A stretch of 64,000 bases of DNA from Amphiscolops sp. MND2022 (Eukaryota). The translations under genes and the position numbers were made by a program. Positions 12,517 through 58,907 of the stretch are shown piece by piece. The notes beneath the pieces are model-generated. The model made no database searches and had not been told where the DNA came from. It saw nothing but the letters and a program-made list of their open reading frames with translations. The stretch covers positions 5,582,001 through 5,646,000 of the forward strand of contig OZ076409.1 in NCBI GenBank assembly GCA_964187785.1. The letters run 5' to 3'. Numbering within the stretch: the stretch's first letter is position 1; every line of letters starts with the position of its first letter.

Positions 12517-12550
12517 TGTTTCTGATTTTTCGATAGCTGTTTGGGGTTAA

Positions 12551-27539: not shown

Positions 27540-27885
27540 TGAAGTACCTTGGATTTGTTTAAGTTTTAGAAAGTTATCAGATCTTAGATGAATTATTTTA
27601 AAAAAGGTACAGTACTTTAAAGAGACGCTAACAGAGCTGCAGTGTTAGGTCTTAAGTCAAGACAACTTGATTGTGAAGAGTAAATTAGCGTTGTGTCGGA
27701 TATAAATCAGATTGATGCTTTACAATGTTGAGTATGGTATTGAATATAAATTAGATATCTTGATTACATTAATATTCAGAATACAAACATCTAGTCTAGA
27801 CATTAAGCAAAGAGGGGGGGTGAATGATCGAATATGAATTAAAAGTACATCAGTAAATGATCGAATATAAATTACAAGTATATCA
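27540..27885 (-). repeat. 3' LTR of element C (about 346 bp)
   Basis: Minus strand TGATATACT...TTCA, preceded by AAACCCGGTGGGA; matches 63835-64000. Confidence 0.85.
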
Positions 27886-28175
27886 TCCCACCGGGTTTAT
27901 CGTATCAAGATACGTTTTAATGAAACGGATTAGAGGTTTGTTTAAATCAGTTGAGGTAGTTTTATAGTCTCTAGGAGAGTTGGTTTTAAGGTGTACAGGA
28001 TTGAGAGAAATTGTAAGAACAGAAAATTTTTCTTTTGTGAATTTGTATATTTTTGATATTTTTCATCAAGTTGTAGGGTATCAAGTTGTATTATTTTTTC
28101 CTTACGTGTGAGTTTCGGGCGAATATGTAATTGGTATCTAGAGTCCAGTTTAAAACGAACGGAGTGTGGTTGTGA

Positions 28176-28908
28176 TGTAGCGATTACCTATCGAGTACAC
28201 GATTTTGAAAGTTTCGATGAAAATTTCGTTCAAGGGACTATATCCCCTCTACTGAAAAGTCATATTCCGCTGGACGGCAGCGTGTCTTTATTCAAGTACC
28301 TGCCCACAAAATTGAAGAGAATTTGAGCAAAAGACTCCGGGCAGACCCCAACCGAACGAGAAGACTGCAGAAAAACACGGCCGCTGTCAGAAAAAGACTC
28401 AAATTTCTGTCAAAACGGACTGAACTTTGTTTTAGCCAGTGCTTTCTTCAGCGAAGCGTTACAAGACGCTGTGATTACCGAAAATGAGTCAATTGGCTTG
28501 ACCAAGCATCCGTGCTTGTGTCCCCGGCTAATTGCTGCCTCAAAAGTGCTGATTATGTAGTAATTTTTGTATTTTCTTGTTGTAACAGCTCGTGAGCTAC
28601 TTATTTCGATTTCCTGTGTAACTTCTAAAAAACTTGATTTTCCTTTCCACCACTTGCATTTTTTAAAGGCTATCTAAGCGTTGGTTCCGAAGAAAAAGCG
28701 TAATGCGCGCTACTGTTAGCAATTACAGACTGGATCAGGCCGGCAAGCACTTCTTAAGAAGCGGAATCCTCCTCTGACGGGACATTTCTTACCCGAAGGA
28801 GGCAAAATGGACTCATGGCCATGGGCGCCTGTCCCGGGCAAATACCCATGCCATGTGTTCCTCCTGCTCTTATGGTTACGGCGACAATGGTGAGAGCTTG
28901 TCGTTACA
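28176..28908 (+). repeat. 5' LTR of element D
   Basis: Direct repeat of 46636-47368. Confidence 0.98.
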
Positions 28909-28924
28909 TGGAGAACACATTTTA

Positions 28925-28941
28925 TGGCGACCACAGAGGGA
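28925..28941 (+). promoter_or_regulatory. Primer-binding site, tRNA-Arg-like
   Basis: TGGCGACCACAGAGGGA resembles the complement of the tRNA-Arg 3' end (...UCCCUUCGUGGUCGCCA type) and lies 16 nt from the LTR end. Confidence 0.75.
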
Positions 28942-31285
28942 TCGCTTCGAAGTGCTCCCCTTAATGGTTTTAAAATAGCCGACCCTCTGGTGATTGACGC
29001 CAAGTACGACCCGACTCTGATGAAACGAAGAGAGAAGCAGAGTTTTTCCACGTTTTTACCCTGTGTGTGATTGAAGACTTCAAGCCCGGTGGATAAAGGT
29101 AAATCTTGTAAAAAAGCGCTGTATGTGATTTTCATGCTTTTTCAGTAGTTGACAGGTAACGATTGAAATAGCCTACCCTCTTAACGGGTCACTCATAAAA
29201 TTGGTCTAGCAAGCCGCTGGAAGGCTGCTAGAAACGTTAGCAGGTGTTTTCTAGCCTTTTTCAGCTTTTTATGACCAATGAAGTGAGTGTTGAGAAGAGG
29301 ACGATCCTTGCTCAGACGAATCTTACAATCTGCCGAAACGAGTTATACGACTCACCGATCCCATTTCTCGTACAGGCAACCTAGAGGAATGAAATTTGGT
29401 GGAGACGTATTACAAATGCTGACGTGTCTAATGGTGCAACCCGTTTATCTCTAGCTGTTCTGGGTGATGAGCAAAAAGAACGAGAAGACACGACTCGTCA
29501 GTCCGGGTTGTATAATATTTTTGAGTCAGGTTGAAAAAATTTTTTGGGTTGCTCAAAATTTTGTGTACGACCACTTGCCAATGTTTTTACGAGCCTTCTG
29601 TAACTAGGTGTGTGCTTTTGCACCTGTTTTGTGCGAAAAAAGTGCGTTTTTTCATGTATTTTCGACGAAAAGTGCCAAATTTGGCCATTTTGAGGCGAAA
29701 CACCTACATGAGCGCGAGCGCTCTTGGTGCTAGCCACACCCCTGCAGAAATTAAATAAAAGTAGCTCAGGACTCTAATGAGTTCGCAAAAAACGCGACGA
29801 ACTGCTCAAAGTTGCCCGAAAAGGCACTTAGTATAAATTTTGTGAGGAAAAAACCCCGTTTTTGGAAGACTGAACATTTCTAGCACTTTGTGGGGGAACT
29901 TGTATAGAAGCTTTTAAACACCCCCGTATGGTTGCAATTAGGTTGGGGTACACCTGCCGGTACCCAACAATACCCATTTTGGTAATTATAACCACTACTT
30001 CTTGAAAAAAGTTACGAGAACTGTGATTTTGAGGTTTTTCCAGAGTACTCTTAGAAGAAACCCAATTTGACTATTGACGAACACTTTTACGCTTAGAATA
30101 GCCCCCGGGCTATTATTTTCAGTTTATTCAGTAAATTTAACGATCTACAGTGAAGACCGCATCCCAAAACTCCTTTTCAGTGCTGAGAAAAGTAGAAAAA
30201 TGCACTAAAAAACCTCCATTCTCCTAAAATCCGGACTGTCTCTGAGCTAAGGTCGGGTCATTGATTCTTGGACCTTAGCCAAAAGGTGGTTGCATTTTCA
30301 TAACCACCACTAAAAAGAACGCTAGTGCCGAAAATTTGGTGGACGTAACTTTCACCAAAGTCGAAAAAAGTTCTCTAACGTTTCAACTTTAGGGGACTGT
30401 AAAACTGCCGAAATAATCCAAAACTGACGGACTGTCGGTGCCTCGTGTTTAACGGGCACACCTAATCGAGGGTTTATCCTAGTACTACGAGTAGTGGGGC
30501 AACACGTAGGTCCCATTTTTTTTAGCCCTACCACTTTTTGAGGTGACCCTCTTAGCCAATTTGAAAAAAAAGTAGTCCAAAATTTTTTTTATGAGTGTTG
30601 TCCAAGTAAGGTCGGAACCTCTAATAAGCATCCGCGCTTTCATTTGATGGTTTCACCGGCATTGTACACGCTCATCGACTGTAGCTACAAAGTTTCGTGT
30701 CAATCCAACCGGTACTTGGTGAGAAAATAGAAAAAACGTACCACTCAAAAAGTTGGGCATAGAGGATAATTTTTCAAATTTTTCCTGAGTGATCCGAGTA
30801 CCTTAATTGAAAAACGACGTTGAATTGCCGTTCATTTCTATCATTTGTACCAGATACTACGTTGTTTTGCAAATTTTGAGCCCGCTAGCTTTTTTTCAGT
30901 AAGGCACAATCTTGAAATAAGCATGAAAATTGATGTATCTTGGTGATTAAGGGTACCGAACGTCCGAATCAGCCTGAATCTTGAAATAAGAACCTTAGCT
31001 TAGATTTGATTTTGCTATCGTGTAGTACACCTACCACAAGGTCAGGTGGCCAATTTTCAAGTGTCTCCGACGATTAGACGTTGCGCTCGAGGCATCTTAG
31101 TCATTTTTAAAGAAATCTGAAAAACTCAAAAATTGTCTAAAAACTCGATTGTTTGCGAATTAGCTGTTCCGCAAGCCCCAAACGCACGGTTTCCGGCCCC
31201 ACACCACGGTATAAATGCGCTGTGTAAATTTCACGCCGGTACGACCCCTAGATTGATTTTTGACTTTTTCGAGACGTGTGAAATC

Positions 31286-32125
31286 ATGAAAACTAACAGT
31301 TTGCGTAACCTTTGGAATTCTATAACGAGAACATTAATCAGCACGAACACCCGGCGATGCTCTAATCTTTCAAGAGGGGGGAGGAAGGACACGTCGCGAC
31401 GCGCTGAAGCATCGAAAACACCAGACCCAACGGGATGCGAGACAAATCGCAGTGCAATATCAGACCTGACCTCAGACCCCAGGGAGGAAGATTGGCCAAC
31501 TGATGACAGTTTCGTTATGGAACCCGATTTTTCAGACCCTATGTCAGACGACGCATCGGAGAAGTATCAGGCCAAGCCGGTCGCCAGGACTACCGATGAT
31601 ATCGGAGGTTCAGTTGACGAAACAGGAAGTCAGACCCATACTTCCAAATGGTTGCTGAACTTACCCAGCGCTGTCACACCCTATGGTGTAGATGACACTG
31701 GAGCGTGGCCTAACTCCAACAAGACGAATGAAGATGAAGTAGAAATGAGCTGCCTGAATGCGACGGGGCAATTCAAAGCTCCAAGCACTGCGAGTGAGGG
31801 CACAGCTCATACCACAGAAGTACTCCAACAAATGTCCTATATAGGAGGCATGGATTATGCCAGGGCACGTCTTCAAGAAGCTACGGCTCCCCGAGCATCT
31901 GGGAAGGGTAAGCAAGTACGGCCCCCAGCTTTATTAGCACTAACCAGTACTACAGGACCTCATGGCGATTCACGCTCATCCTCACCCTCATCAAAAGCTG
32001 CATCTGCCCGATCTTCGGCATATCGAGCCGTACATGAAGCAGCGAAAGCGCGCAAAGCTCTATTAGATGCTCAGATAGGCGTGAAGCAAGCTGCTTCACA
32101 ACTGTCTGAGCGCAAGGCAAGGTGA
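31286..32125 (+). CDS. Disordered N-terminal part of element D Gag; in frame with the next ORF across one TGA
   Basis: First ATG at 31286. After TGA at 32123-32125 the same frame continues D-R-E-H-Q-S-I into the ATG at 32147. Confidence 0.8.
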   Translation: MKTNSLRNLWNSITRTLISTNTRRCSNLSRGGRKDTSRRAEASKTPDPTGCETNRSAISDLTSDPREEDWPTDDSFVMEPDFSDPMSDDASEKYQAKPVARTTDDIGGSVDETGSQTHTSKWLLNLPSAVTPYGVDDTGAWPNSNKTNEDEVEMSCLNATGQFKAPSTASEGTAHTTEVLQQMSYIGGMDYARARLQEATAPRASGKGKQVRPPALLALTSTTGPHGDSRSSSPSSKAASARSSAYRAVHEAAKARKALLDAQIGVKQAASQLSERKAR

Positions 32126-32146
32126 GATAGAGAGCACCAGTCAATA

Positions 32147-35100
32147 ATGGAGGAAATAGAAGCCGTGCAGGCTGAATTGCGAACATCAACTGAGCGACAA
32201 GCGCAAGGACATGAAATTCAGGCCGCCCGAATGGATGCTATGGGCTATCGAATGGCCGAAATGAAAGACATGGTGGCCGAAAGAGAGGTGCGCATGGAAG
32301 CTCAAATGCAAGAGGTATGTTCACAGATACAAGCAATGGGCACTATGTTAAAAAATATCCAATCTCGACCCGCACCAGCGAGCAACACTATCAAAGAGTT
32401 GCTGCAAGACACTGACGTATCACTGCCAAAACCCATGAAAAGCGTCTCCCTCAAGCCAAAAGAGAGTGTGACGACTGCAACAAACCCATCTGGCTCTAAA
32501 CAGCACTTGGCGAGGTACGCGCCTTTGCCACAACCTCTGGTCTCAAATGGAGAGGCCGCATCAACCTCGACGAAATTTATCCCGTCTGCGGTATCAACAA
32601 AATATATTCCACGCACGACCAAAGCTCACAAGAAAGAACCAACGTGCGAGGTGATAACTATCGACACTTCAAGCATGGGTATCACCGGCCTGCGAGAGCC
32701 CACACGCACAAACGAGCTGACTGAAGTCACCAGCACCTTCCAAACAGCAAATGCAACTTTGGGAGAATCAGCTGCAGAATTCCAAACCGCGGACGATGGG
32801 TTGCCCCTGGGCAACCCATGCGCCAGCAGCACCCGACGCCGAGAAGTGACAATCCCCGAGAACACCGATGACTCTGTCAACTCAACGCGAGGCAGCAGTA
32901 TCCCGCCACCAGCTATCACTGAAGAAGCGCCTATATCACCGGAGCAACTCAGGTTTACCGAGGCAATATCCAAGGCCATGTCCAAGGAACTGGCGCCGCT
33001 AATTGCTAATCGAGATCAAACTAGGGTCCGCCCTACGGTGTACAAAGGCACTAAAGATGGTACTGTCGATGGATGGCTTCCAGTGATGAAGCGATTTCTA
33101 GAAAGGGTGCATGCAAAATCACCGAAGATCGACAAAGCCTGGGCTATCATCGACCACCTGGAAGGGGAGGCGAGAAATTATATGATCAACAAATCTGAAC
33201 CTGAACGAGACGAGCCCGACAAGGTATTCTCTCTCTTGGCCAGCAGGTTTGGAACCGGTGGAAACCGCATGCACGTCAGGCAAACCTTCATGTCTCGTGT
33301 CCAACAGGAAAAAGAGGATTGGATGCAATTCTTGGACGCATTGGAAGGTCTGCGCACCCAAGGTTTCCCAGACGAGCCTATCACTACACGTCGTTATGAA
33401 ATCCTGCAACGTTTTATAGATGGCGTCAATGACCCGACGCTGCGACAAGAGTTGGCCGTGGTGTACGCTGCGGAGACGTATTTGACTGAGCCACCAACTG
33501 TAGAATCCCTGAGATTCACCACGAGACAATTGCAACGGCATCGCCCAAACACGTCAAAACCTTACGACCCAAGGTATGCAATGAGATCGAGGCCTAATCC
33601 TTTCGTGCCAGGGAAATTGGTTCACCCGGCACCAGGCCTACCACAAAATGTGCTGCCTCCAAACCAAGGACAGCGAGAGGCAAAGCCCCAGATGGCCCCA
33701 CCAGGCCCTGCATCGGTAAAACAGGCTCCTGCACAGCAGCAACCAGCGAGAGTGATTCCCCAAGGAGCATGCTTCAACTGTGGACTATCGGGTCACTTTG
33801 CGAGGGAATGCCCACATCGAGACCTAGCAAAGAAACCCGCGGCTCGCGCTGCACCCGAAGAGCGAGTGAACCTGTGTGAGAACAATGTGGCCTCTGTATG
33901 TTCTGGCCCCGTATTCTGTGTTAAATGTGGCATGACCGAACACTCTGCATCACAATGCCAAAATGTTTCAGTACATGAGGATTTGGCCTACAGCCTCTGG
34001 GCTGAACAGCCATCTGCTTCTCAAACGATGAGTGACAATGAAATGGTACTCATGCTACGCCCTGCTGAAGCCGCTCACGTGGCGACGCCTCTTACCGTCA
34101 CATGTGGCAAAATCCAAATCCAGACGAACCCAGAGCCAACTACTTTTGATCCCCCGGGACGCACTATCATGTCTGCCCGACTACTGTTGGCGGTCGAGAG
34201 AGAAACCCGCCCAGAACTCACCATAGACGCTCCGATAGAAGAGATGACCGCAAACGAGAATTGCCGGCAACTGACTCTGCCCCAACCGGAGGAGTGGCAA
34301 GTGAAAGGTGTCACTTCGACGTATCATGCCTATTCTCCGATTCCAGTCAAAGTCTGCATAGTTGGTGTTGACATGCGTTTTGGCGCCACTATTATTACTG
34401 ATGCGTTTCCTCCTGGAATCTGCTTGGGACCGCAAGAGCTGCGCTGCTATAACATTGACGCTCAAGAACCAACTGGTGAAGCGAGAATCGATGAGCGTTC
34501 GTCGCTCGAGGTTTCATTCGTGGTTCCCGATGCTGCTCCCGTGCCATTACGTGGTCTAATAGACACTGGATCAGGAGTATCCATCCTCACCTTCTCAGCC
34601 TACAACCGAGTCGCCGTGCGCACTGGCACACTCTTACGACCTTATGGTATTGACTTATATGCCGCGAATGGGAAGACGATCAAAACTTTTGGTCTAGCGG
34701 AGAAAGTCAAATTCCAATTGGGAGGCTATGAATTGGAAACTAACTTCGTGGTAGTTGATGACGCTATGGGAGTGGAAGACTTCCTCCTGGGCAGAAACTT
34801 CCTAAGAGCTTATCAGGTCTTGGTAGACCTAACCGCGATGAAGGTCATTGTCCGAGCTCCCTCTGAACCGGTGTGGTACCATGCCCACGCGCAAGTAAGT
34901 AACGAATCGCTCAATTCGTCGGTAGCGATTGCACAGGACGTAGTGTTGCAACCTTTTGAACGCGCGATACTACGCGCTAGATTGCTTTCAGACAACTTAG
35001 AACCTTTCATGTTTCGAACCGTGCTAATCAATTTTCAAACACCTAACCGAATGTTAAAAAACGCCATCTTTTTAGAGGACACCGTGGCGACCGTGGGGGA

Positions 35101-38100
35101 AACTGGTTTCCTTTACGTCAGTTTAGGAAATCTCACCAGCAACGTACAGCGGATCAAAAAGGGCACTCTTTTAGGAACCGCGGTACCTGTGACGATGGTT
35201 CATAAAGCCATCCCCCAAATTGTCCCCGGACAATCAAATGAAACTCTGCAGTCAAATGCAAATTATGTTTGTAAAGTTTACGAACAGATGAACCTTGATT
35301 CTTCTTCTGAATATAGTTCTCCATCTGAATTTGAGTTTTTGTCCTCTACCGAACCGTCAGAACTAGGCTTGTCCGAGCGTGAAATAAAAAAACGAACCGA
35401 TCCGGCGCTAATGGCTCCGATACCGGGCCCGGAAGCACAACTCGACGAAGTGCGCGGTTTGTGGGGCTCGACCGCCAGCGACACGCTTAGTAAACGTTTG
35501 AACGAATTTGATGATTTGTTTATGAAATTCAAAGTCGACATTGGCAAATGTAAAATCGCTAAGCACCCGGTGGAAGTAGAGCCAGGGGCTATACCTCACG
35601 GTGAAGGTGCAAGACGAATGTCGCCTGACAAGGCAGAACGTGCTAACCAAGAAGTCCGTGACTTGCTAGCTTTGGGAATGATACAACCTTCCCTATCCCC
35701 TTGGGCGAGTGGAATTGTTATGGTCAAAAAGAAGAGTGGTGAATTGCGATTCTGTTGTGACTTTCGACCACCTAATGAAGTGACCATCAAAGACGCTTAT
35801 CCCTTGCCACGTATCGATGAGAGTCTATCCCGATTGGGCAAAGCCAAAATCTATACCAGTATTGACTTGGCATGGGCATTCTGGCAAATCCCTGTCCGAA
35901 AAGCCGATCGTCAAAAGACTGCCTTCGCTTGTGAACTTGGGTTATTTGAGTGGCGGCGTATGCCTTTTGGTATGTGTAACGCATCAGCAACATTTCAACG
36001 GGCAATAGCGCGAGCGCTACAAAGAATAGTGAACCGCGAAGGAAGTATGGTTATGGCCTATATCGATGACATTGTGATTGCTACCGAGACCATCGAGGAT
36101 CACATGGATAGACTACGCGAAGTATTGCAATGCCTGCGTGAGGCCGGCTTCAGAATGAGAGTCTCCAAGTGTGACTTTATGAAATCGGAGATCAAATATT
36201 TGGGCCGAGTTGTATCCGCAGATGGTATCAAGCCAGATCCAAAAGCTGTCGCCAAGCTGAAAGATTGGGATATCCCGCGAACCAAAACTGAATTGCAAAG
36301 TTTCTTGGGTTTTGCCAACTACTATCGGGATTTTATCCCATGGCATGCAAAGCTAGTTGCCCCTTTACATGCGATGACGGGCGCAGGCTCTCCATTTTTA
36401 TGGGGGGAGGAGCAGCAGCGAGCCTTTAACAGCATCAAAGTGGCACTAATGGAAGCCACTGCTCTGGCGCAACCCGACACTGAAGGCGAATTTGTTCTTG
36501 ACACCGATGCTAGTGGTGTAGCTATATCAGGTATTCTTCACCAATGGCAAGGACCACCTGAGAGTCACAAATTGCGACCGATTGTATTCGGAAGCAAAAA
36601 GTTAACCTCTACGCAAGCAAAGTATGGAGCCCCAAAACTGGAAATGTACGCTGCATACTATTTCATCTTGAAAAACCACAGCTATCTCTGTCCACGGAAA
36701 TTCACACTGAGAGTCGACAATCAGGCCCTATCCTGGCTAAAGACATATTCGATGGATCAGGCGATTATTGGTCGATGGATTATGGCTCTTGAAAAATATC
36801 ACTTCGGTATTGAGCACCGACCCAGAACGCAACATCGAAATGCTGATGGTCTTAGCAAACGAACAAATGACTATAAAAAACACGAAAAGCAATTAAAGGG
36901 TTTACCCGCAATTGCAGACCAATGGGATTTCCTATCACTAGAGGAATACAACAAACTCCCGCTAGCCCCATGGTTTGATGTCCACGGATGTGTGATACCA
37001 AATCACCCAGAATTGCCTGCACACTTGCAGAGGTTGGCTAGCCAAAGTTCACCCGAAACCACAGTTGCCGCTCCCACGCGAAGGAGCGGACAAAGCAAAC
37101 GAAGTGCGATCATGCGCGACGAAGCCATGAGAGCACCCCTACCTAGATTGCCAAAACCAGAACTGGCACTGCCTGCCGAACTTTATCCAGAGTATCCTGA
37201 GGATTGGTTGGAACTGACCGAGGAATATCAACGAGACTATTTGCTCCCCACGCATGCTGCTAACGTACCATCAAGAACCACTTATCCACTGACGGAAAAG
37301 CAAGCAACTAGCACTGCACCAGAGCACGTAAAACAAGCCGCGTTTGTGGTAAACAGCATATCGATGGAATTGCATGAACATGCTGACACAGTCCATGGGT
37401 TGAAAGATCTACTACTGGCACAAAACCGTGACGTCCACGTCTTGGCTATCAAGAAATTGGTAATGCAAGAGTCAATAGATCATGACATCTTTCCGGAAAA
37501 TGTACGTGCCTTTGCCAAAAACTACCACAAACAGAAGAAGAACCTTCTGCTGGTAAACGCGAACGGGGTTTTGTGTGTAAAGTACTCCAAAAGTCAAAAA
37601 GCTTTGCATGAACGCCCCTGCATGATAGTGATGCCCCAATTGTATCAGCATGAGATATTGTTCAAGGCCCACGACGCGATGGGACATCAGGGCATCGCGA
37701 AAGTCTTGGCCAGAATTCAAGAGCGCCACACTTGGCCAGGCATCCGCCGCACCATTGGACAATACGTCAGCCAATGTATCACTTGTCAACAAGTACGTGA
37801 CAAGCCTGGTGATGTACGCTTTCACTTGAAAAATATCCAAAGCGACTATTTTAACGAGCTAGTCCAATATGACCACATGAAAATTTGTCCCTCTGACGAT
37901 GGTAACACAGGGATCTTGGTTATTATTGATCATTTCTCTAAGCTCGCAGAAGCTGTGCCGTGCAACCACGATGAGTATGATGCAGCGACCACTTCAAAAT
38001 TGTTGTTGCAGAAATGGTTTGCCCGCCATGGAACGCCGACGAGAATGCAGTCAGACAATGCTCCCAACTTCACCGCGGCAGTATCTGCTGAGTTTATGAA

Positions 38101-39640
38101 AGCCGCCCAAGTGACCAAAGTAACCTCAACTGCTGGCCACCCCAAGACTCAAGGGTTGGTAGAGCGACAAAACCGAACGTTACTCACCCTACTGCGTGTA
38201 TTCTGCTCTAGACGAATGCGTGATTGGGACCAGTATTTAGATGAAGTCATGGGTGCATACAACTCCACACGTCATGCCACTACTGGGTTCTCCCCGTATA
38301 TGCTGACCAGAGGCATGGAAAAAGCTATACCCCTGACTTTCTTGTATCCCGAATTTGCAACTCAGTCATTCGAATCACACGAAGCCTATGTGGAACATGT
38401 GCTGGCTCGACAGCAAGAGATTCATGACTTAGTCCGTCGTAACACGCATCAAGCCCAGCAGCGACAAAAGTTGAAATACGACCGAGCAATTCGTGCTAAA
38501 GCCTATGAAGTGGGCGAACCTGTTTGGGTATTCTGCCGATACATTCCTCAAAAAGGATCTCCTAAATTGATGAGAGCCTGGCATGGTCCTCACAAAGTAG
38601 CACGAGTGCTACAAGAGGGACGCGTCTACATACTTGACACTGGTCAAAAAGTACATTTCGAACGATTGAAACCGCACCATGGTGGTCCAACAGAATGGGC
38701 AGCTGTTCCTGCGCATAACGGCGAGGTTGCTATCATCATGGACCCTCACCCAGAACAATCCCACGAGGAAGTGAGAGACGATGCTTCGCAACCTTCTTAT
38801 CGTGCGGAGGAACCAATTTCAGAAGCCAGTAATGCCTCTTTGCCTTCTCGACAAAGACATTGGATGGACACACGGTTGCGCACACGCATGCGCGCTGGTG
38901 GCAGCCGCCTACATTATCAACAATTTGACTATTCTTCGACTGAGTCTGACGACGAACGTTCTGATGTACTCCTGTCGAGTGTTCAGGCTAATCCCGATGA
39001 GAGTGCTATCTTGTCATCACATGTGGATGAACCTGCGCCTATTCCCGAAATACCAATATCACCACTGCCTGCTATGGAGGCTCTATTCTCAGAGAATGAA
39101 GCAGTGCCCGACGTCTTGGATATCGCCCCAAATCCTACTATCCACGCACCCACCAAAAGTGCCGGCACCTCTCTGACCGGTACATCCGCCCCATTATTGA
39201 CAAATCCATCTCTTACGGATATGTTGAGTAACTTTCCCATTTGGCCCCTAATCGATGACAATGTTCTCAATCCCACCTTAGACGACAACGGTGCTGAAGC
39301 ACCAATGACCAATGACGAAAAGGGATTTATTCCCCCTACGACAGTTCCCACCAACAACAACGCAGCTACTACCACGAAACTCTCCAATGCTCCTAGAGGG
39401 CATAGACCGCGAGGACGTCCGCCAGGCAGAGCGAGGCCGCGAGCCTCGCTGCCACGTGGCCACCAACAGAGAGGTGCTATTAGAGGCGCTCGCATAAGAG
39501 GCCGTCCCAGAGGAAGACCTCCTCGTACAACACACGCCAGACCTAACACCTCTACCCGTGTTCGTCGCACTCCATCTGTGGACACTGACTCTTCTGCCCC
39601 TAGCGCGGCGGTTACCTCAGATCAAGCAGCACCGCCATAA
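32147..39640 (+). CDS. Gag-Pol polyprotein of element D (capsid, two CCHC knuckles, protease, dUTPase-like region, RT, RNase H, integrase)
   Basis: CFNCGLSGHFAREC and CVKCGMTEHSASQC; LIDTGS (34562); PWASGIVMV, MPFG, YIDD (36059-36070); DTDAS; HDAMGH..CITC; YDH / SDNA / VERQN (DDE); WHGPHKV. Confidence 0.98.
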   Translation: MEEIEAVQAELRTSTERQAQGHEIQAARMDAMGYRMAEMKDMVAEREVRMEAQMQEVCSQIQAMGTMLKNIQSRPAPASNTIKELLQDTDVSLPKPMKSVSLKPKESVTTATNPSGSKQHLARYAPLPQPLVSNGEAASTSTKFIPSAVSTKYIPRTTKAHKKEPTCEVITIDTSSMGITGLREPTRTNELTEVTSTFQTANATLGESAAEFQTADDGLPLGNPCASSTRRREVTIPENTDDSVNSTRGSSIPPPAITEEAPISPEQLRFTEAISKAMSKELAPLIANRDQTRVRPTVYKGTKDGTVDGWLPVMKRFLERVHAKSPKIDKAWAIIDHLEGEARNYMINKSEPERDEPDKVFSLLASRFGTGGNRMHVRQTFMSRVQQEKEDWMQFLDALEGLRTQGFPDEPITTRRYEILQRFIDGVNDPTLRQELAVVYAAETYLTEPPTVESLRFTTRQLQRHRPNTSKPYDPRYAMRSRPNPFVPGKLVHPAPGLPQNVLPPNQGQREAKPQMAPPGPASVKQAPAQQQPARVIPQGACFNCGLSGHFARECPHRDLAKKPAARAAPEERVNLCENNVASVCSGPVFCVKCGMTEHSASQCQNVSVHEDLAYSLWAEQPSASQTMSDNEMVLMLRPAEAAHVATPLTVTCGKIQIQTNPEPTTFDPPGRTIMSARLLLAVERETRPELTIDAPIEEMTANENCRQLTLPQPEEWQVKGVTSTYHAYSPIPVKVCIVGVDMRFGATIITDAFPPGICLGPQELRCYNIDAQEPTGEARIDERSSLEVSFVVPDAAPVPLRGLIDTGSGVSILTFSAYNRVAVRTGTLLRPYGIDLYAANGKTIKTFGLAEKVKFQLGGYELETNFVVVDDAMGVEDFLLGRNFLRAYQVLVDLTAMKVIVRAPSEPVWYHAHAQVSNESLNSSVAIAQDVVLQPFERAILRARLLSDNLEPFMFRTVLINFQTPNRMLKNAIFLEDTVATVGETGFLYVSLGNLTSNVQRIKKGTLLGTAVPVTMVHKAIPQIVPGQSNETLQSNANYVCKVYEQMNLDSSSEYSSPSEFEFLSSTEPSELGLSEREIKKRTDPALMAPIPGPEAQLDEVRGLWGSTASDTLSKRLNEFDDLFMKFKVDIGKCKIAKHPVEVEPGAIPHGEGARRMSPDKAERANQEVRDLLALGMIQPSLSPWASGIVMVKKKSGELRFCCDFRPPNEVTIKDAYPLPRIDESLSRLGKAKIYTSIDLAWAFWQIPVRKADRQKTAFACELGLFEWRRMPFGMCNASATFQRAIARALQRIVNREGSMVMAYIDDIVIATETIEDHMDRLREVLQCLREAGFRMRVSKCDFMKSEIKYLGRVVSADGIKPDPKAVAKLKDWDIPRTKTELQSFLGFANYYRDFIPWHAKLVAPLHAMTGAGSPFLWGEEQQRAFNSIKVALMEATALAQPDTEGEFVLDTDASGVAISGILHQWQGPPESHKLRPIVFGSKKLTSTQAKYGAPKLEMYAAYYFILKNHSYLCPRKFTLRVDNQALSWLKTYSMDQAIIGRWIMALEKYHFGIEHRPRTQHRNADGLSKRTNDYKKHEKQLKGLPAIADQWDFLSLEEYNKLPLAPWFDVHGCVIPNHPELPAHLQRLASQSSPETTVAAPTRRSGQSKRSAIMRDEAMRAPLPRLPKPELALPAELYPEYPEDWLELTEEYQRDYLLPTHAANVPSRTTYPLTEKQATSTAPEHVKQAAFVVNSISMELHEHADTVHGLKDLLLAQNRDVHVLAIKKLVMQESIDHDIFPENVRAFAKNYHKQKKNLLLVNANGVLCVKYSKSQKALHERPCMIVMPQLYQHEILFKAHDAMGHQGIAKVLARIQERHTWPGIRRTIGQYVSQCITCQQVRDKPGDVRFHLKNIQSDYFNELVQYDHMKICPSDDGNTGILVIIDHFSKLAEAVPCNHDEYDAATTSKLLLQKWFARHGTPTRMQSDNAPNFTAAVSAEFMKAAQVTKVTSTAGHPKTQGLVERQNRTLLTLLRVFCSRRMRDWDQYLDEVMGAYNSTRHATTGFSPYMLTRGMEKAIPLTFLYPEFATQSFESHEAYVEHVLARQQEIHDLVRRNTHQAQQRQKLKYDRAIRAKAYEVGEPVWVFCRYIPQKGSPKLMRAWHGPHKVARVLQEGRVYILDTGQKVHFERLKPHHGGPTEWAAVPAHNGEVAIIMDPHPEQSHEEVRDDASQPSYRAEEPISEASNASLPSRQRHWMDTRLRTRMRAGGSRLHYQQFDYSSTESDDERSDVLLSSVQANPDESAILSSHVDEPAPIPEIPISPLPAMEALFSENEAVPDVLDIAPNPTIHAPTKSAGTSLTGTSAPLLTNPSLTDMLSNFPIWPLIDDNVLNPTLDDNGAEAPMTNDEKGFIPPTTVPTNNNAATTTKLSNAPRGHRPRGRPPGRARPRASLPRGHQQRGAIRGARIRGRPRGRPPRTTHARPNTSTRVRRTPSVDTDSSAPSAAVTSDQAAPP

Positions 39641-41047
39641 TCAACCAACGCTCGCTATGGCCTGCGACGCAATCGTATTCCCAGATATCGTTGCGGAACA
39701 TGTGGCCTACGAGACTGCGAATGTAACTACATGGTCCATGCGGGCTTCCCAATTAAACCCCAGGGAGTCCTGCTAGCACGTAAACAGGAGAAAACGCTTC
39801 CAAGCAGCACGATTGACCGTTTGGTAATTCGAGCTGAGAAGACTTATACTGGGCTACAACGCAGCGACACTCCATATCCTGTGAACTATATCCTATCCAA
39901 AATGAAAGATTCTACGATAGCAAAGGCCCCGTGCCCAAGATTCAAGGAGTGGACCTATGATCTTATTTGTTTGGATTTCACATTACCTATCACTGTTCCC
40001 CCCTTGCCTACAAATTTTGCTTTTGGTCCTTTCAACTATGAACGAGAACCTATCCAAATGGTACGCTGTATCCCTGCTGACCTTTTGTATGACAAGTACA
40101 ACGTCACCGCAAAACCAGGAGACGTTTATCAGTCTGCAACCAACTGGTGGCTACTAATTACGGCCAAACAAGTGTCCGACCTGGTTCATCCCAATAACTT
40201 GAGCACCTGTCTGGAGAGTTTGCGGACAATGGCCTCTCCTGATAGAATCACTTGTTTCCACACCATAGACCTGTATCGTGGTAAAATTAAGTTTGAATGG
40301 TGGCTGGAACTTATCATAGCAGTCTTATCGAGCTTTTCACGAATCCGATTCCTGGACGATTGGACGCACTCATTTTCTAGTCCTGTATCACTCCAATCAG
40401 CCCTACACGCACTGGATACATGGTCCAGGGCTAACATTGATAACCAATCGTTGCCGCGATCTGTGTGGCAAGACTTGGGCGCCATTAAAGGCCTCCTTCC
40501 GAACACATGTGACGATGCTCTCTCCAATGACCCCGGACGAGAGTTAATATACCATGGAGCCGTGAGACCTCAATTGGTTGACTATGTGCAGTATGCCAAT
40601 ACGGACTTCCTGCAAACTCCCCATCATATTGTTTTATGTTGTCCCGCAAACCTTGAGACTAATTCTGCCGCTCTTCGTTACGTCATTCGTGAGCATGGTG
40701 CAGATGCAATCTTTCAACTTCTACCGGAGGTTGGCAATATTGTGACGCTACCCACATCTTTGATAGACGGCCATCCTCAGACTATCCACCTTTTAATCAC
40801 ACGAGCTACACCTCGCTGCCCTATGCTCGCTGATATTCTCTTGGGATGTCTTGATCATTTGAAAACGTTACTCGAGCGCTTAGAGGCGATAGAAGTACAC
40901 TTTGCCATCATTGATCCTGAGCGCCCAATACGTAATCTTTTCGACTTTTATACCTGTTTGATGGACGTATTCGCTGACACGCCCCTGACCGTCGTTCTTC
41001 ACGATCGCGTTTACGTATCTATCGCAAGCGTCGCTAGCTTTCCGTAG
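39641..41047 (+). CDS. In-frame continuation of Pol: RYGLR motif, Cys cluster and two degenerate macrodomain-like repeats (TARG1/Poa1p type)
   Basis: The frame stays open from the TAA at 39638-39640 (STNARYGLRRNRIPRYRCGTCGLRDCECNY) into the ORF at 39731. Two repeats show the pattern C.padl...pG.v....llIT......L..CL..L...idxxr...vf. Confidence 0.75.
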   Translation, partial: STNARYGLRRNRIPRYRCGTCGLRDCECNYMVHAGFPIKPQGVLLARKQEKTLPSSTIDRLVIRAEKTYTGLQRSDTPYPVNYILSKMKDSTIAKAPCPRFKEWTYDLICLDFTLPITVPPLPTNFAFGPFNYEREPIQMVRCIPADLLYDKYNVTAKPGDVYQSATNWWLLITAKQVSDLVHPNNLSTCLESLRTMASPDRITCFHTIDLYRGKIKFEWWLELIIAVLSSFSRIRFLDDWTHSFSSPVSLQSALHALDTWSRANIDNQSLPRSVWQDLGAIKGLLPNTCDDALSNDPGRELIYHGAVRPQLVDYVQYANTDFLQTPHHIVLCCPANLETNSAALRYVIREHGADAIFQLLPEVGNIVTLPTSLIDGHPQTIHLLITRATPRCPMLADILLGCLDHLKTLLERLEAIEVHFAIIDPERPIRNLFDFYTCLMDVFADTPLTVVLHDRVYVSIASVASFP

Positions 41048-41269
41048 AACTTTTTGTTTTTCCTTTCGCTCTTTTTTTTTCTTTTGTCCGCTCGATTAAG
41101 TTTAGTGAATCGACACGGAGTTTACTTGAAACAAATACGTTACCTTTTCTTTTAATGTTAATTTGTGATATCCTATTACTTCCCCTGGTATTACCCTTAA
41201 AGTGACCTATGGTGTTACCCTACTATCAAGTGTGCTACAATCGACCTGCACTCTTTCAGAGTTTCCGTC

Positions 41270-44200
41270 ATGAACCAAAGTGACGATGAAAGCAACTACG
41301 TCCCTCCAAGATCTTCAGATGACTCTCCTGCCTTGGGGCACCGCGTTTACGACACTGCGCGTGTCCAGCGTACCCCACAAATTGCTTTCATTCGAGACAG
41401 ACTCGACCAAGGTCTGTCGCCAGCTACAGTAGCCGGGGTGGCGGCGATCATAGCCCAGATGGAGTCACAAGTGCAAGCCCCTATGCTGACGATATCTATC
41501 ACTTCAGGCTTTCCTGGGTTCCAGCGATCTATGACGTTCCAAGATGGAGTGTGGTACGGCCATGATCTCACACATCACTTTACGGATGATCGTGCAGCGA
41601 TCTCATACAGTCCTGCGAATGGCGGAGTCCATCAGACCAGATCTCTACAGATCCCTTCTTGCCCGCCTCCACCTCCACCGCCACCTCCTGTATCAATGCC
41701 ACAAACAGTAGTGCGTGCAAGCACTTCTGCTCCTGCAGTACCTAACTTGTCCAATCAACCAATGGCAGAACAAGCAGTTATCTCAGCACTGCAAGCAGTA
41801 GCTATCAACCCTAATTACGCTGATTTCATGCGATCCATGGAGCAGTGTTGGCCTGAACTACGCCAAATTGCTCTGCCTACTGTTACTATTCGCAACGAAA
41901 ACGCCACTTTGAACCAAACAAGTTAAGATGCTATCACTATTCCTCACGTCAATCCTCAGTCTGAACAGCCAGGGCACTCCCGCACCGTGACTGTAGAGCG
42001 CAGTCGTTCGCCTTCCCGCTCTTCTCAAAAGGGGGGAGGAGAGAGCCGCCCTGCCTCCAGAAAACGCAATGACCGTTCTCCAACAAGAATGAGTGCTCAA
42101 CAACCACTAACTGCTCGTGACAGCCCCTCGAGCAAGCCACCACCCGACAAAAAGATCTCCAACGAGAAGGCCACAACCTCCAAGACGCCAAACCAAACAA
42201 AATCAAAAGTGTCGGAAGCATCCGTGCTTCCCTCACCCCAGCCACAACCAAACGCAACAGGCGAACAACAAGGACTGCCGCAGCCACCACCCACGCAGTC
42301 TACAACACGCGAGTCGCTGGCTCAACGAGCGGTTCCTAAGACTTCTACATCAAGACAGCCACAAACGGAGCAAACTGTGGTTTATCAAGGCACCCCTGAA
42401 CCTCAGCGAACTGTCAAGGACATAATGGGTGATTACCCAGGATTGAAGGTAACCAACAGTGGTCCAACTGGAACCCCACTCCGCAAACAGGCAATTCAAC
42501 ACCCAACTAAGAGGACCTTTACAAAGCAACCGACGTACCTGAGTCCAATGCAAAACACGAAGGGCAAGCTGATCACCAAGGACTCCCGACGTATCTGGGA
42601 ATCGGCAGTTATTGTATCACCCGAATGGCTGTTTGAAAAGAACATGTGTCCTCCGAATGACGAAGAGCATGCGAAATTGAAGAAGGCGAAAGTATCTGTA
42701 TTCATGAATCGTCCAATTCGCCCCGACCACACCCCTACTAATGAGCCGCCATGGCTAGGGAAGGCAATGAATATTCTGCCAAACGTAGAAGACAACTACT
42801 TGGACGCCCTCAACATTGACCTTCGTGGGCAATTCGCTGCCGATACTTCCTCAACGCTGGAGAGACCTTCGAGATCAACCCGCGGTACGCCCGTGACCTC
42901 GAAGCCCAGCTACCAATGCCAAAAGAAAGGTTGCAGCGTGCGCGCTTCGCCTTACTTGTAGACTCGACCTTCCTCAAAAATATCCCTATTGACAATGTGC
43001 TGTCAGACGTGATGGTTTTCACTCTACCGCTGTCACGTATCCCCGAGATGGCTGAAGTGTTGGTCACCATGTTTGACCCCGAGATGACGGGGACCTTCAA
43101 AGAGCCACCCCCACGCAGAGTGATCATCAGTAACGTTTTCGATCACATGGCCTGTGAAGGACTAATGGCCCAGATCGCGAACGTTGAAATCATAAATCCA
43201 ACTCCAGCACAGCGAGCAACAGTACGCAACGCAGTACTGAATGTGGCCCGAGCCATGGAAAAAGCCCAAAATATCCTAAAGAATAAACTCAACGTGCCAG
43301 TCTTGTTTGTAACACCCCCAGGTTTCTGCCAGTGGCATCCCGCCTTGCAGAGATTTATCTATATGGTAACAGAAATTTGCAAATGTAGAGAAATAGACTT
43401 TGCGATCTGCGCGCCCAATATGCGGATCAGCTCCGACGACTTGCGTCCCTCCTGGCTTTCCTACATGGGGTACGTTGCCTCAGTGTCTAAAGTGCTACAG
43501 TCAGTGGAAAAGACAGGGAACGCGCAGCTGACAATCGACGATGCCATCTATTTTGATCACGGCACTCGTATGGGCTTGTTAGTATTCAGCAACAACGGAG
43601 AAAGGCGAGTCCCAGAACCTAGCACGGCTGAATGTCAGGCAATCCGCCTGAATAACTGGATGGAGCGCGCGCGCTCCTCCGGTGGAAAGACTTGCATTAA
43701 AACTGATCTTGCGGAAGTCACCGCCATAATGAGCAAAATCCCCAGCGACCGAGAAGTGGAACGAGCCATCCCGCGAGTTCAATTTGCCCAGGACCTCACT
43801 ATTGACCAACTATCAGTGGGAATGAGGTATATCGCTGCAAAATTGACGAGCGAGACTCAGGCTGAAATCCAAGCCTTCAGCAGCACCTACGACGCTTGGT
43901 ACCAGCGGCTGCAAACTACCACCGTAGCAGACATTGCAAAAGAACTTGGGATGTCAACCGACCAATTTGCCATCTGTTTGGGATTGGGTTGGAGTCCCGA
44001 TGTTATTCGAGTTGAGTTCGGCTTGGACGAACACTGGTTGATCGGAATCAGCAAGATTATCGGCACCATGCAAGTAAACGAACTCTTTGCACTGATACTC
44101 ACCTTCGGGCAGAAACGCTTCGTAGCTGGCCCAATGATGATATTGACCGACCTGGTTACTGAGTGTAATCTGGAATGGCTATTTTCGTATTTAGTGATTG

Positions 44201-45625
44201 CGCGAGGCAATATCTCAGGCCTCACCGCCTTAGCCAAGCTGCTACAACGAAAAGACGCTCAGGATTATCCCGCTCACCTGGAGCGCATGACAAGTTCGTT
44301 ATATCACTGGATATACTGCAGTCTGGTCTTTGCCTCGGGACTTTTCGTGGGCGTAGATAAGCACCAACCATTATATGACGGACGTCAGCTGGTGACCGAG
44401 GTAGCTGGATTTCTGACACCTAACCAGCTGGCAGATTTCACTTTGGCTGAAGTCGAAGACCTTGTACCGGTGTTAGCACCCGTGCTAACTCCGATATTTG
44501 GCCCAACCGGGATACTTCGCTATCCCACCAAGCCTCTGCGACTCGCCTGGGAAACACCAACAGTCTCCATCCTGACTTTTCTGAAGAATGTAAAACCGTA
44601 CAACTATCAGCAGATGCTTGAACGCGGGTTGTTCCATGTATACCACCATAAAGAACGAAACGCAGCAGGACGAAAACCTGGCCGGCATTCTCAAAGCCCG
44701 GACAAAGAAGGCGTGCCCTTTACCTCGCGAATACGGCCCGGTGAATTGGTACAATTCGCCCCTAGATCACCATGGAATCCCACAGCGATTCAATTGGAGT
44801 TTCGCACACCTCAGGAAGTACGTGACCGAATGCGTACAAGCCATGGGCGGTCACACAAACCAGGGGTATAATTTTCAGATGATCAAGCTTCCAGCCAGGT
44901 ACTGGCGAGGACCCATCGGCTATGCCCGGGCTAAGCCAATCAGCATGGTTGAGAAAGGCTTTAATGAGCAGTACGCCTATCGCGATCACTACAAACTAGG
45001 CGTGTGGATGTCAAGGACCCTGGAGGAACGCCAAGGGCGCCTAAAAGGCTTGATCATCCCTCCACAGACAATGCCTGTTTGGAATCCAGTGGCGAGGGTC
45101 ACTATGGGAAGCGACATGCCAGCGGAGACCTGCTACCATGTCATGGAACTGCTGAGTGATCCCCTCGGACCCGAATGGGAAGCCTCCAGGCAAATTATAG
45201 AACATGAAAACAGGGACAACTGGTCCAGAGCCTGCGGGCTCTGGGGCCGACCTGATCTACGCCCGAAACTCAGTGCCAAGCAGAAACGACCCATTGCCAC
45301 CCGCAATAGACCGCTAGATCTACCACACCTGTTTAATGCCAGTAGATTGGATGTGCAGATCCCAACCTCCACGTCGACCACAAGTTCTGCCAATGTTAGC
45401 GGCTCAGCCAATGCAGCGCAAGAACATTCGCCAGAAGTCTCAACTCCCGTAGCTGCGGAAAATGGCCCTAGTGGCTCAAACACGACTCCCAGGACCCATG
45501 AAACTGCCAGCGCCGAACCAAGGCCAGTCCTGCGAGAAGGAAATGTGCGAAGAGGATCCCTGTCCGAACCACAACCGAAAGCCGACGTCTCCCCCAGAGC
45601 GCGTCAATTCTCCGCCACCCAGTAA
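41270..45625 (+). pseudogene. Accessory ORF of element D (about 1450 aa reconstructed; one in-frame stop and two frameshifts) with an SGNH-hydrolase-like domain
   Basis: 41270-41926 and 41987-42961 share a frame across one TAA; frameshifts near 42820-42845 and about 44630 join 42916-44871 and 44618-45625. SGNH-like blocks: FALLVDS, VIISNVFDH, VLFVTPP, SDDLRPSWLSY. Confidence 0.75.
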
Positions 45626-46621
45626 AACAAACCTAACATTATTGCCATTCTGTTTTAAACTTCAATAGTCCTGTGCTAAATGAACCTTTGCAAAACCTCA
45701 TGGTTTCAACCACTGTTGTTGCTAAACTTTGATTTTGGAAGTGCCAATTGGTCATGGGTAAAAACCTCCAAGTGGAGATGAAGCCCCCGGGCTTCATCCT
45801 CCTCATTATTCCGTTTTGGGACCGGCAACCCAACCATAAAACTACGCCTTTGCCTTGCCTTAGTTAAATGCATTATTCAATTTGCAATTTGTGTTTGCAG
45901 TTAGTGCTTTTTCAAGCTACCTTATGCTACCTTATGGATGCGCTGTGCGCACTCCGTGCTCTGAATTTTCGGTGCTATTACACCCTTTTAGTTACTAGTT
46001 ATTGTTTACACTGTTGCTATTGTCGAAAAAGACAAAAGGAAAAAAATGAAGGAAAAGGAAACAAAAGGAGAGAGATGAGAAATGGATAGAATAAAAAGAT
46101 TGATGGACCTAGACTATTGTTTTTTCTTTGAGTTACCTGATAGGATTGAGAGTAAGTCTCGCAAAAGAAATTTTATATTGACTGTACTTATTGGTTGATT
46201 TTATGGCAACTGCTTATCAAAAGAACTTTTATCAAACGCCAAGCAGTGCGAAGCTCCCGAGCTTCGGAAAATAAATTTTGAACTGTCATGGTCGTTGACC
46301 TTAAAACAAGTTTTAACACTAACGGCAAAAAAAAAATTTTGTATGAAAGGCCGAAAAGAAATTTTAACGCCTGAACTGCTCACGACAGGCTACAAAAAGT
46401 AATAACCTTGCCGTATAAGATTTGTATACGAAGTTGTATTAATTTGATCAAAATGCAGCAACGCTGGGTCAAAAACACTTCCACGAGGCCAACTTGACGA
46501 CGTCCCAATGAACTGCCCAGCGCTAGTTGATGTGCACTCTACCTCCTCAGTGGGACATAGATGACCCTGGGTAAAGACTCGATGATGCCAACCCACACTT
46601 GACGGGGACGTCAAGACTAGA

Positions 46622-46635
46622 CCCCGGGGAGTGTA
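46622..46635 (+). promoter_or_regulatory. PPT-like tract of element D
   Basis: CCCCGGGGAGTGTA lies directly before the 3' LTR. Confidence 0.7.
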
Positions 46636-47368
46636 TGTAGCGATTACCTATCGAGTACACGATTTCGAAAGTTTCGATGAAACTTTCGTTCAAGGGACTA
46701 TATCCCCTCTACTGAAAAGTCATATTCCGCTGGACGGCAGCGTGTCTTTATTCAAGTACCTGCCCACAAAATTGAAGAGAATTTGAGCAAAAGACTCCGG
46801 TCAGACCCCAACCGAACGAGAAGACTGCAGAAAAACACGGCCGCTGTCAGAAAAAGACTCAAATTTCTGTCAAAACGGACTGAACTTTGTTTTAGCCAGT
46901 GCTTTCTTCAGCGAAGCGTTACAAGACGCTGTGATTACCGAAATTGAGTCAATTGGCTTGACCAAGCATCCGTGCTTGTGTCCCCGGCTAATTGCTGCCT
47001 CAAAAGTGCTAATTATGTAGTAATTTTCGTATTTTCTTGTTGTAACAGCTCGTGAGCTACTTATTTCGATTTCCTGTGTAACTTCTAAAAAACTTGATTT
47101 TCCTTTCCACCACTTGCATTTTTCAAAGGCTATCTAAGCGTTGGTTCCGAAGAAAAAGCGTAATGCGCGCTACTGTTAGCAATTACAGACTGGATCAGGC
47201 CGGCGAGCACTTCTTAAGAAGCGGAATCCTCCTCTGACGGGACATTTCTTACCCGAAGGAGGCAAAATGGACTCATGGCCATGGGCGCCTGTCCCGGGCA
47301 AATACCCATGCCATGTGTTCCTCCTGCTCTTATGGTTACGGCGACAATGGTGAGAGCTTGTCGTTACA
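46636..47368 (+). repeat. 3' LTR of element D
   Basis: Direct repeat of 28176-28908. Confidence 0.98.
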
Positions 47369-48789: not shown

Positions 48790-49400
48790 GGGATTACAAA
48801 CGGATCAGTATTAGGAGAAAGTTCAATATGTAGGCGATGAGAACATAGGAGGATGATAATGGTGGTACAACAGCAGTAGGAGGATGAAATGAAGAATCAG
48901 TAGATGGAAGAACATGTTTTGGAAAAGCAATAATAATTTCATCATTAATATTGTGTTTGGTGGGAAAATACTTATAATATTGTTTTTCTAGAATGAAAAA
49001 AGAGAGTTTAGCAATTACGAATTTCAGTTCGGCAATGGAGTTATGTTTGTGGACAAGGGATGTATAAAGAACACGAGAGTGATCATCAACGGGCGTTTCG
49101 ACTAGTTTAGTCATTTTTGGAAAGAAATTTGAGACATTTTTGGGGATGTGTGCAGGTAAAAGAAAATCATCATTGAGATTGAGTGCTGCCTGGGGAATGA
49201 AAAGAGAACGAGTAGGATCATGGTAAGGAGAGATAATTTAATATTGTTTAACTGGATCATAGTTATGGATAGTGCCAATTGTGAAGAGGTAGTTTACAGA
49301 ATAGTGAGATTGGTATGAGAGTAGAGAAGTGAATTTATGATTTTGAAATGTGAAGTTTTGGGGATGTTTTTGTTCACGAAAAAGTTTTTAGGTTTGATGG
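48790..49400 (-). pseudogene. Post-env accessory ORF remnant of element C, also present in element A (about 16090-16420)
   Basis: IGTIHNYDPVKQY..YHDPTRSL...DDHSRVLYTSLVHKHNSIAELKFVIAKL versus element A IGKIRSYDPVKQ..YREPTR...DDHARSLYVSLEHKH.LIAQLNFIVARL. Confidence 0.65.
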
Positions 49401-58900: not shown

Positions 58901-58907
58901 AGAGTGA

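Follow-up and report, generated by a model that had tools for sequence, protein, structure and literature searches.

The 64,000-nucleotide stretch of Amphiscolops sp. MND2022 DNA analyzed here (GCA_964187785.1, contig OZ076409.1, positions 5,582,001 to 5,646,000; hereafter the window) contains at 28176..47368 a single long terminal repeat (LTR) retrotransposon whose anatomy, that of an autonomous Ty3/Gypsy copy with an ORF1 polyprotein carrying accessory folds and a separate ORF2 (ORF, open reading frame), is almost certain. The accessory folds comprise a pseudo-protease next to the true protease (the term is an old name for retroviral dUTPase, which is not meant here), a dUTPase-like domain, two macrodomains behind the integrase and an SGNH-like domain in ORF2, and sequence comparisons indicate that they are probably conserved but non-catalytic. 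The explanation favored on balance is that of a recently inserted and since disabled autonomous Ty3/Gypsy element whose accessory folds have been repurposed as non-catalytic modules, in a family that would replicate by the ordinary LTR route. The lineage, marked by its tandem pseudo-protease, is apparently undescribed.

Architecture and state of the element

Self-comparison of the window revealed a single long direct repeat bounding the element, giving exact coordinates and a length of 19,193 bp. The LTR pair differs by eight substitutions and no indels (98.9% identity) and encloses an internal region of 17,727 bp, organized as follows.

28176..28908, plus strand: 5' LTR, 733 bp, TG..CA (self-comparison)
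28909..31516, plus strand: non-coding leader, 2.4-2.6 kb, with no Rfam match and no notable repeats
31517..41047, plus strand: ORF1, gag-pol-accessory polyprotein in a single frame of about 3,176 codons, interrupted by stops at 32123 and 39638, intact relatives P0054 and P0061
41270..45625, plus strand: ORF2, about 1,450 codons, broken by one stop (41924) and two frameshifts (near 42838 and 44635), envelope features not observed
45626..46635, plus strand: 3' untranslated region (UTR), 1.0 kb, with a short purine run just before the LTR
46636..47368, plus strand: 3' LTR, 733 bp, TG..CA (self-comparison)

A reading made earlier from the sequence alone had described a giant Gypsy about three times as long as its neighbor, with a leader of about 2.4 kb, about 14 kb of coding sequence in two reconstructed ORFs, a 1-kb 3' UTR and LTRs about 99% identical. 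These dimensions were borne out: the element is 3.15 times the length of the neighboring Gypsy at 6682-12768, the leader measures 2.4 kb if the first in-frame ATG (31286) is taken as its end and 2.6 kb if it runs up to the ATG at 31517, which aligns with the start of an intact relative, and coding sequence totals 13.9 kb over ORF1 and ORF2. The word 'giant' has to be dropped, since a giant LTR retrotransposon is defined in the available excerpt of PMC6431247 by an internal region above 20 kb; the element is large, not giant.

Apart from its internal stops the ORF1 frame is open over 31121-41047. This copy contains three stops and two frameshifts in all, and each of the five breaks is crossed by natural relatives: ORF1 is covered in one frame by P0054 (3,113 aa) and P0061 (2,999 aa), and the ORF2 breaks are bridged by P0001, P0003, P0005, P0006, P0008, P0021 and P0037. 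The copy is dead and, since every break is spanned in natural proteins, the plan of the family is one of two ORFs. This copy has been disabled since its recent insertion, and three stops in 13.9 kb is about the number (approximately three, by rough estimate) predicted from 0.55% divergence per LTR. A young insertion in a recently active lineage, as described in the sequence-only reading, is supported, with the correction that this copy is dead.

Core enzymes and accessory domains of ORF1

The following features were assigned within ORF1.

32993..33565, plus strand: capsid-like region, 71% and 53% identity to sister families, weak PNMA matches in relatives
33770..33958, plus strand: two CX2CX4HX4C zinc knuckles (Pfam, sequence)
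34067..34486, plus strand: pseudo-protease, a duplicated retropepsin-like domain that lacks D[TS]G (hhalign against the protease of the clade)
34508..34870, plus strand: aspartic protease, DTG at 34562 (Pfam PF13975)
34883..35215, plus strand: dUTPase-like domain without catalytic motifs (hhalign to dUTPase profile)
35633..36325, plus strand: reverse transcriptase (RT), YIDD at 36059 (Pfam, motif)
36398..36805, plus strand: RNase H (Pfam, motif)
37523..38695, plus strand: integrase with HHCC, DDE and GPY/F-like WHGPH (Pfam, motif)
39413..39520, plus strand: three AT-hook cores (GRP) downstream of a spacer rich in acidic residues and proline; such a core is present in 44 of 45 full-length relatives
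39692..39724, plus strand: CxxC-x4-CxC motif, candidate small zinc finger, conserved in 44 of 45 full-length relatives
39998..40495, plus strand: macro 1, probable degenerate duplicate of macro 2 (hhalign to macro 2)
40574..41014, plus strand: macro 2, TARG1/OARD1-type macrodomain lacking both the Lys84/Asp125 dyad and the phosphate loop (predicted fold, residue counts)

Pfam matches to the zinc knuckle, protease, RT, RNase H and integrase gave the domain order gag-protease-RT-RNase H-integrase with RT and RNase H of Gypsy type, and the catalytic motifs of all four enzymes are present. The best PDB match of P0132, a member of the same clade (see below), was Ty3 Gag-Pol (E 7e-101). None of the five accessory domains of this family was matched by Pfam, either in the window or in intact relatives.

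The pseudo-protease comprises the 140 residues preceding the protease. Its profile matched that of the protease at 91.5% in hhalign (E 9e-7; reversed control 0.4%) and D[TS]G was absent from all 19 rows, in agreement with the sequence-only reading; judged by profile comparison, the method on which the assignment is based, the domain is a true duplicate of the protease. The score was 91.3% before and 91.5% after removal of P0157, which was non-homologous and was also taken out of the dUTPase-like alignment (P0146, deleted there, was removed from the latter only). A complex prediction for protease and pseudo-protease scored 0.00, with the alignment not used and the partner fold uncertain, and was counted neither way. 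The dUTPase-like domain was compared with a profile built from 11 annotated dUTPases and matched it at 82.5% (E 1e-5), with six controls below 1%, again as had been proposed. The RSG, IDSDY and C-terminal GFG motifs of annotated dUTPases are absent from the element rows, and in the ESM Atlas the region matched unnamed clusters only, at 0.95-0.96.

A model of the macro region was generated from a 71-row alignment (mean predicted local distance difference test score, pLDDT, 73.5). In this model macro 2 (residues 312-458) matched human TARG1 with Z 18.0-18.9 and a root mean square deviation of 2.0-2.3 (Foldseek E 3e-8), the next structural match being DarG (Z 16.7); viral macrodomains were also among the fold matches of the region. 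In sequence searches the region matched 312 representatives at E<=0.001, phmmer against the PDB returned nothing, the macro-region profile reached TARG1 only at E 0.056 and the ESM Atlas gave no usable match. Lys84 and Asp125 form the catalytic dyad of TARG1 (PMC5087735 and PMC7050489, in excerpt). In a profile alignment to TARG1, Arg is found at the Lys84 position in 30 of 35 macro 2 rows and Lys in two, and the RIGCG loop including Asp125 is replaced by DPER. Macro 1 matched macro 2 at 86.9% (E 4e-6; reversed control 1.4%) and has a similar order of strands and helices, and one two-domain match was obtained to macros 1-2 of PARP14; it is a probable, more eroded duplicate of macro 2 on this profile evidence. 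A beta region lies ahead of macro 1. Of the two macrodomains proposed earlier, macro 2 is supported by its TARG1 fold and macro 1 less strongly, by its match to macro 2.

A macrodomain at the same position occurs at the end of pol in two clade members. In P0132 it is near-canonical TARG1 (E 3e-26 to human TARG1, with a Pfam Macro match), retaining the Lys, the Asp and the RIGCG loop, while P0136 has a single eroded macro; together the two match macro 2 at 98.3% by profile. It is possible that the macro pair is a working counter-defense, binding or removing host ADP-ribose marks non-canonically as viral macrodomains do or acting as a decoy for ADP-ribose readers. The intact-looking TARG1 of P0132 and the viral macrodomains among the fold matches point that way, as do, in excerpt, the part played by ADP-ribosylation in L1 silencing (PMC4695847) and the precedent of SCO6735, whose catalysis follows another mechanism in the absence of the TARG1 dyad (PMC5087735). 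However, this lineage has other residues in place of both the dyad and the RIGCG phosphate loop, macro 1 is eroded even further, and we regard a counter-defense role as unlikely.

ORF2 and its SGNH-like domain

Two domains were recognized in ORF2.

42943..43518, plus strand: candidate SGNH/GDSL-fold domain, with the Ser retained and an Arg where the His would be expected, structural matches Z 5.6-7.8
43816..44634, plus strand: conserved helical domain, about 45% identity to the distant ORF2 tier, low-confidence model

The ORF2 model had a mean pLDDT of 48, with values of about 66-90 over residues 70-200. Approximately 44 of the 50 best structural rows were of SGNH/GDSL type (judged in part by title; Z 5.6-7.8, residues 42-233 of the model), and the OSK domain of Oskar was among the matches. 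The SGNH Ser is kept in 34 of the 35 rows with a letter at that position, Arg stands at the presumed site of the His in 42 of 43, and new near-invariant residues occur in the SGNH part of ORF2. In P0134, a protein of a sister lineage, an intact-looking GDSL domain (Pfam E 9e-7) is followed by a second, degenerate SGNH-like stretch; this protein is an apparent deletion fusion of pol to a downstream ORF. Taken together, the modeled SGNH domain represents a weak but consistent fold match.

ORF2 encodes a conserved protein of its own. The ORF2 search returned 52 relatives, mostly at about 84% and about 45% identity, and a search limited to lengths of 2,075-5,000 aa found no ORF2 relatives. No envelope signature was detected: there was no Pfam fusion match, hydrophobic 19-mers in four ORF2 relatives numbered at most two (1.7-2.1), and the C-terminal part of ORF2 was not reliably folded. 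An acceptor-like site ahead of the ORF2 start suggests that ORF2 is made from a spliced message.

41246..41259, plus strand: candidate splice acceptor, pyrimidine tract and CAG, ending 10 nt before the ORF2 ATG (sequence only)

Relatives, recent activity and clade

A pol search gave 122 proteins, 120 of them listed, in identity tiers of 92-96%, about 73%, about 57% and about 40%, which derive almost entirely from ENA records. Among the proteins listed, 44 of the 45 upper-tier relatives of at least 2,900 aa have macro 2 at their end as well as the CxxC motif and the AT-hook core, supporting the AT-hooks noted in the sequence-only reading; two of the 45 rows come from the 73% family and 43 from the 57% family, making three families with the one described here. 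Recent activity of the lineage, also part of that reading, is upheld by the 98.9% identical LTRs, by the cluster nearest to this pol (1,094 member sequences, 96%) and by 28 intact ORF1s of a sister family, all of 2,998 aa and 96.2-99.8% alike, which look like a sign of a recent burst.

A tree of RT and RNase H was built from 31 representatives of the 111 sequences, out of 121, that had enough coverage, and the matches were unnamed or generically named only. The nine rows of pseudo-protease-bearing families formed one clade (100/100, a bootstrap value not fully settled). The pseudo-protease profile, which was trained on clade members, matched 84 of 120 proteins and none of 25 outside the clade, some of which may be truncated. 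The pseudo-protease and dUTPase-like domains persist across the clade at RT identities down to 37%. Behind the integrase, clade members have two dead macros (this branch), TARG1 (P0132), an eroded macro (P0136), a superfamily 1 (SF1) helicase (P0138 and P0144) or nothing recognized (P0125). P0138 (3,697 aa) and P0144 (3,930 aa) are fusions of a pol of this clade to an Upf1-like SF1 helicase (AAA_11/AAA_12), and in P0144 some 1,000 unassigned residues separate RNase H and integrase. In P0056 the whole gag region is tandemly duplicated internally. Two related loci were found in metagenome contigs and were uninformative; none were found in viral contigs.

Neither a tandem pseudo-protease nor Gypsy elements with macros of TARG1 type came up in the literature searches, which did not extend to GyDB, Repbase Reports or subscription journals. 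Elements of this kind may occur in LTR-rich acoel genomes; PMC9911081, in excerpt, gives LTR content at class level. The family or clade might nevertheless already be in Repbase or GyDB with this architecture noted, which would be compatible with the explanation favored here. P0132, P0138 and P0144 have NCBI as their source, so relatives sit in public assemblies, and single cargos have been published (PMC5408684 and PMC6431247, in excerpt). Such a prior deposit nonetheless has a low probability given the outcome of the literature searches, the blindness of Pfam to all five accessory domains of this family and the fact that not one of the 52 ORF2 relatives or of the first 87 listed pol relatives bears a name.

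Conservation and proposed roles of the accessory domains

Conservation was assessed by comparison of identities rather than dN/dS. Against the farther family the pseudo-protease is 36% identical, the dUTPase-like domain 39% and macros 1 and 2 both 42%, compared with 9-30% for linkers and 61-79% for the core enzymes. Canonical catalytic residues are missing from all five accessory domains, but in the farther family these domains are conserved above the level of linkers. Because catalytic residues are lost and yet the folds are conserved, the accessory folds probably act as binding or scaffold modules.

Several observations weigh against this reading. Measured against the nearer family, the accessory domains (47-61%) exceed linkers (28-47%) by a modest margin, and macro 2 scores the same as the spacer between RNase H and integrase (47%). 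The dUTPase match drops to 19% when the three families with paired macros are used alone, and the profile match of macro 1 to the TARG1-like pair of P0132 and P0136 is only 0.1%. Loss of the dyad is no proof of lost activity, because SCO6735 acts without it. The SGNH matches lie below the caution line of Z 8 and derive from a model of low mean pLDDT, Foldseek on that model found nothing at E<=0.001, the profiles of the domain and of the two SGNH-like stretches of P0134 match at 0.2% and 6%, and the His-to-Arg assignment depends on motif position; the SGNH domain of the sequence-only reading is supported, though less strongly. Finally, ORF2 relatives could not be linked to particular ORF1 families without genomic context.

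Loss of every catalytic motif, together with nearer-family identities close to those of some linkers, would also be expected if the accessory folds were functionless, decaying relics of captured enzymes hitch-hiking in an open frame. We consider this improbable, as the folds are full length and in frame in 44 of 45 full-length relatives and are above linkers in the farther family, the pseudo-protease and dUTPase-like domains are kept throughout the clade, and near-invariant residues have newly arisen in the SGNH part.

Repurposing of the accessory folds into non-catalytic modules is preferred to decay, with the specific roles assigned to individual modules remaining tentative. The tail of ORF1, with its AT-hooks, CxxC motif and two TARG1-derived folds, would most likely tether the integration complex to chromatin or to a host protein; chromoviruses carry a chromodomain at this position behind the integrase. 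The macros of the tail would descend from a captured ADP-ribose hydrolase that is still intact-looking in P0132. The pseudo-protease would most likely pace activation of the adjacent protease or serve as a spacer in particle assembly. ORF2, probably produced from spliced RNA, may be a non-envelope ribonucleoprotein or particle factor whose dead SGNH fold could bind RNA or membranes, as does the OSK domain of Oskar, itself a dead SGNH fold. A bolder proposal combines an undescribed Gypsy clade having a tandem pseudo-protease and protease and an exchangeable post-integrase cargo slot, captured enzymes that in this branch have all become pseudoenzymes, countering the host's ADP-ribose and RNA surveillance as a decoy or tether, and an integrase making target-site duplications (TSDs) of 3 bp with TG..CA ends; as a joint claim it is doubtful.

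Flanks, primer-binding region and integrity of the element

28173..28175, plus strand: left flank TGA, candidate 3-bp TSD, the same three bases following the 3' LTR (one copy only)
28909..28941, plus strand: primer-binding region, TGG directly 3' of the LTR and a second TGG motif at 28925 (sequence only)
47369..47371, plus strand: right flank TGA, matching the left flank

In this single copy no 4-6 bp TSD was present at the flanks, a result absent from the sequence-only reading, and TGA was the only sequence common to both sides. A 3-bp match has a chance of about 2%; with one base lost on the left side the shared sequence would be TGAT. The excerpt of PMC12440569 gives 4-6 bp as the rule and 3 bp in Troyka only, and a 3-bp TSD with TG..CA ends is not among the rules stated there. 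The second TGG motif is offset by 16 nt and is more tRNA-like than the first; there is no tRNA gene in the 64-kb window, and Rfam gave 0 matches.

The missing 4-6 bp TSD is explicable by recombination between two copies, and the linkage of ORF2 to ORF1 comes from this copy alone, as would suit a 19-kb composite produced by nested insertions, recombination between copies or mis-assembly. A composite is nevertheless highly improbable. Single natural proteins from three families show the same ORF1 architecture, there is no internal LTR or repeat, and one independent sequencing run with a share of 0.06, represented by 43 short low-depth contigs, yielded pieces in 25 of 30 bins over LTR, leader, ORF1 and ORF2, with no joints and no usable flanks.

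Other features of the window

The neighboring element (6682-12768, minus strand) is an ordinary 6.1-kb Gypsy with 209-bp LTRs (96%), a 5-bp TSD and a frameshifted pol. Decayed retroelement pieces lie on the minus strand at 48794-61877 in the order gag (60737-61162), RT (57298-57816) and a match to a Monjiviricetes-type fusion glycoprotein (52460-53038, E 2e-4); no LTR pair was found in this region, which from these matches is possibly an envelope-carrying element. A second decayed copy of the envelope-like region, at 14770-16406 on the plus strand, resembles 48978-54196 in inverted orientation (64-71% at the DNA level). At 804-4439 lies a BEL/Pao remnant in which Peptidase_A17 was matched. Two unclassified dispersed repeat pairs (20204-20576 with 24387-24795, 77%; 27549-27714 with 63845-64000, 88%) and a gap of 200 N at 58908-59107 were also noted.

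Significance and comparison with known systems

The lineage shows a captured ADP-ribose eraser intact, eroded and duplicated-dead in related elements, a natural series in which to study how enzymes become binding modules and whether LTR retrotransposons are restricted by ADP-ribosylation. The tandem pseudo-protease is a clean marker of a clade whose cargo is missed by standard domain scans. The unit itself nonetheless belongs to a known superfamily of LTR retrotransposons, and every kind of cargo but the pseudo-protease has a retroelement precedent: dUTPase-like and GDSL/SGNH cargo is already known in Gypsy, and macro domains in fish endogenous retroviruses (ERVs) (PMC5408684, PMC6431247 and PMC4977317, in excerpt, as for the comparisons below).

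Human TARG1/OARD1 (C6orf130), DarG and the ALC1-like class share the fold of macro 2 (Z 18-19 for TARG1 and 16.7 for DarG). Unlike TARG1, the domain here has lost the dyad and phosphate loop, is duplicated and is fused behind an integrase. Springtail Daidara is likewise a large Gypsy with extra ORFs. So, compared by description only, is plant Ogre, whose size derives from LTRs of 1.9-6.5 kb (PMC6431247). Troyka would share the 3-bp TSD only if the TGA flank is a true TSD; its CG..CG ends, 100-400 bp LTRs, CX2CX8-10HX4C knuckles, missing GPY/F and internal region below 7.7 kb (PMC12440569) do not hold here. Membership of Troyka was rejected on the TG..CA ends, 733-bp LTRs and CX2CX4HX4C knuckles of the element.

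Planarian Burro/GYPSM1 likewise has a single huge gag-pol, many accessory domains, a dUTPase-like domain between protease and RT, and accessory ORFs (PMC6431247). Burro differs in an internal region of up to 25 kb, a 4,873-aa ORF1 and MATH, BIR, BCL2, ankyrin and env-like cargo, and its description, the sole basis of comparison, makes no mention of a pseudo-protease, macro or SGNH domain in the part available (PMC6431247). Membership of Burro was rejected, ORF1 here having about 3,176 codons and no MATH, BIR, BCL2, ankyrin or env-like Pfam match being found in the window or intact relatives. Epsilon-like fish ERVs are also macro-carrying retroelements, but belong to Retroviridae and have separate macro ORFs, whereas the macros of the present Gypsy are pol-fused, duplicated and degenerate (PMC4977317). 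The bdelloid rotifer Gypsy elements Vesta and Juno resemble this element in having a dUTPase between protease and RT and a GDSL/SGNH domain in an extra ORF downstream of pol; the available part of their description mentions macro domains 0 times, and their SGNH residues are intact (PMC5408684), whereas here the His is apparently replaced and the domain lies within an ORF of 1,450 codons.

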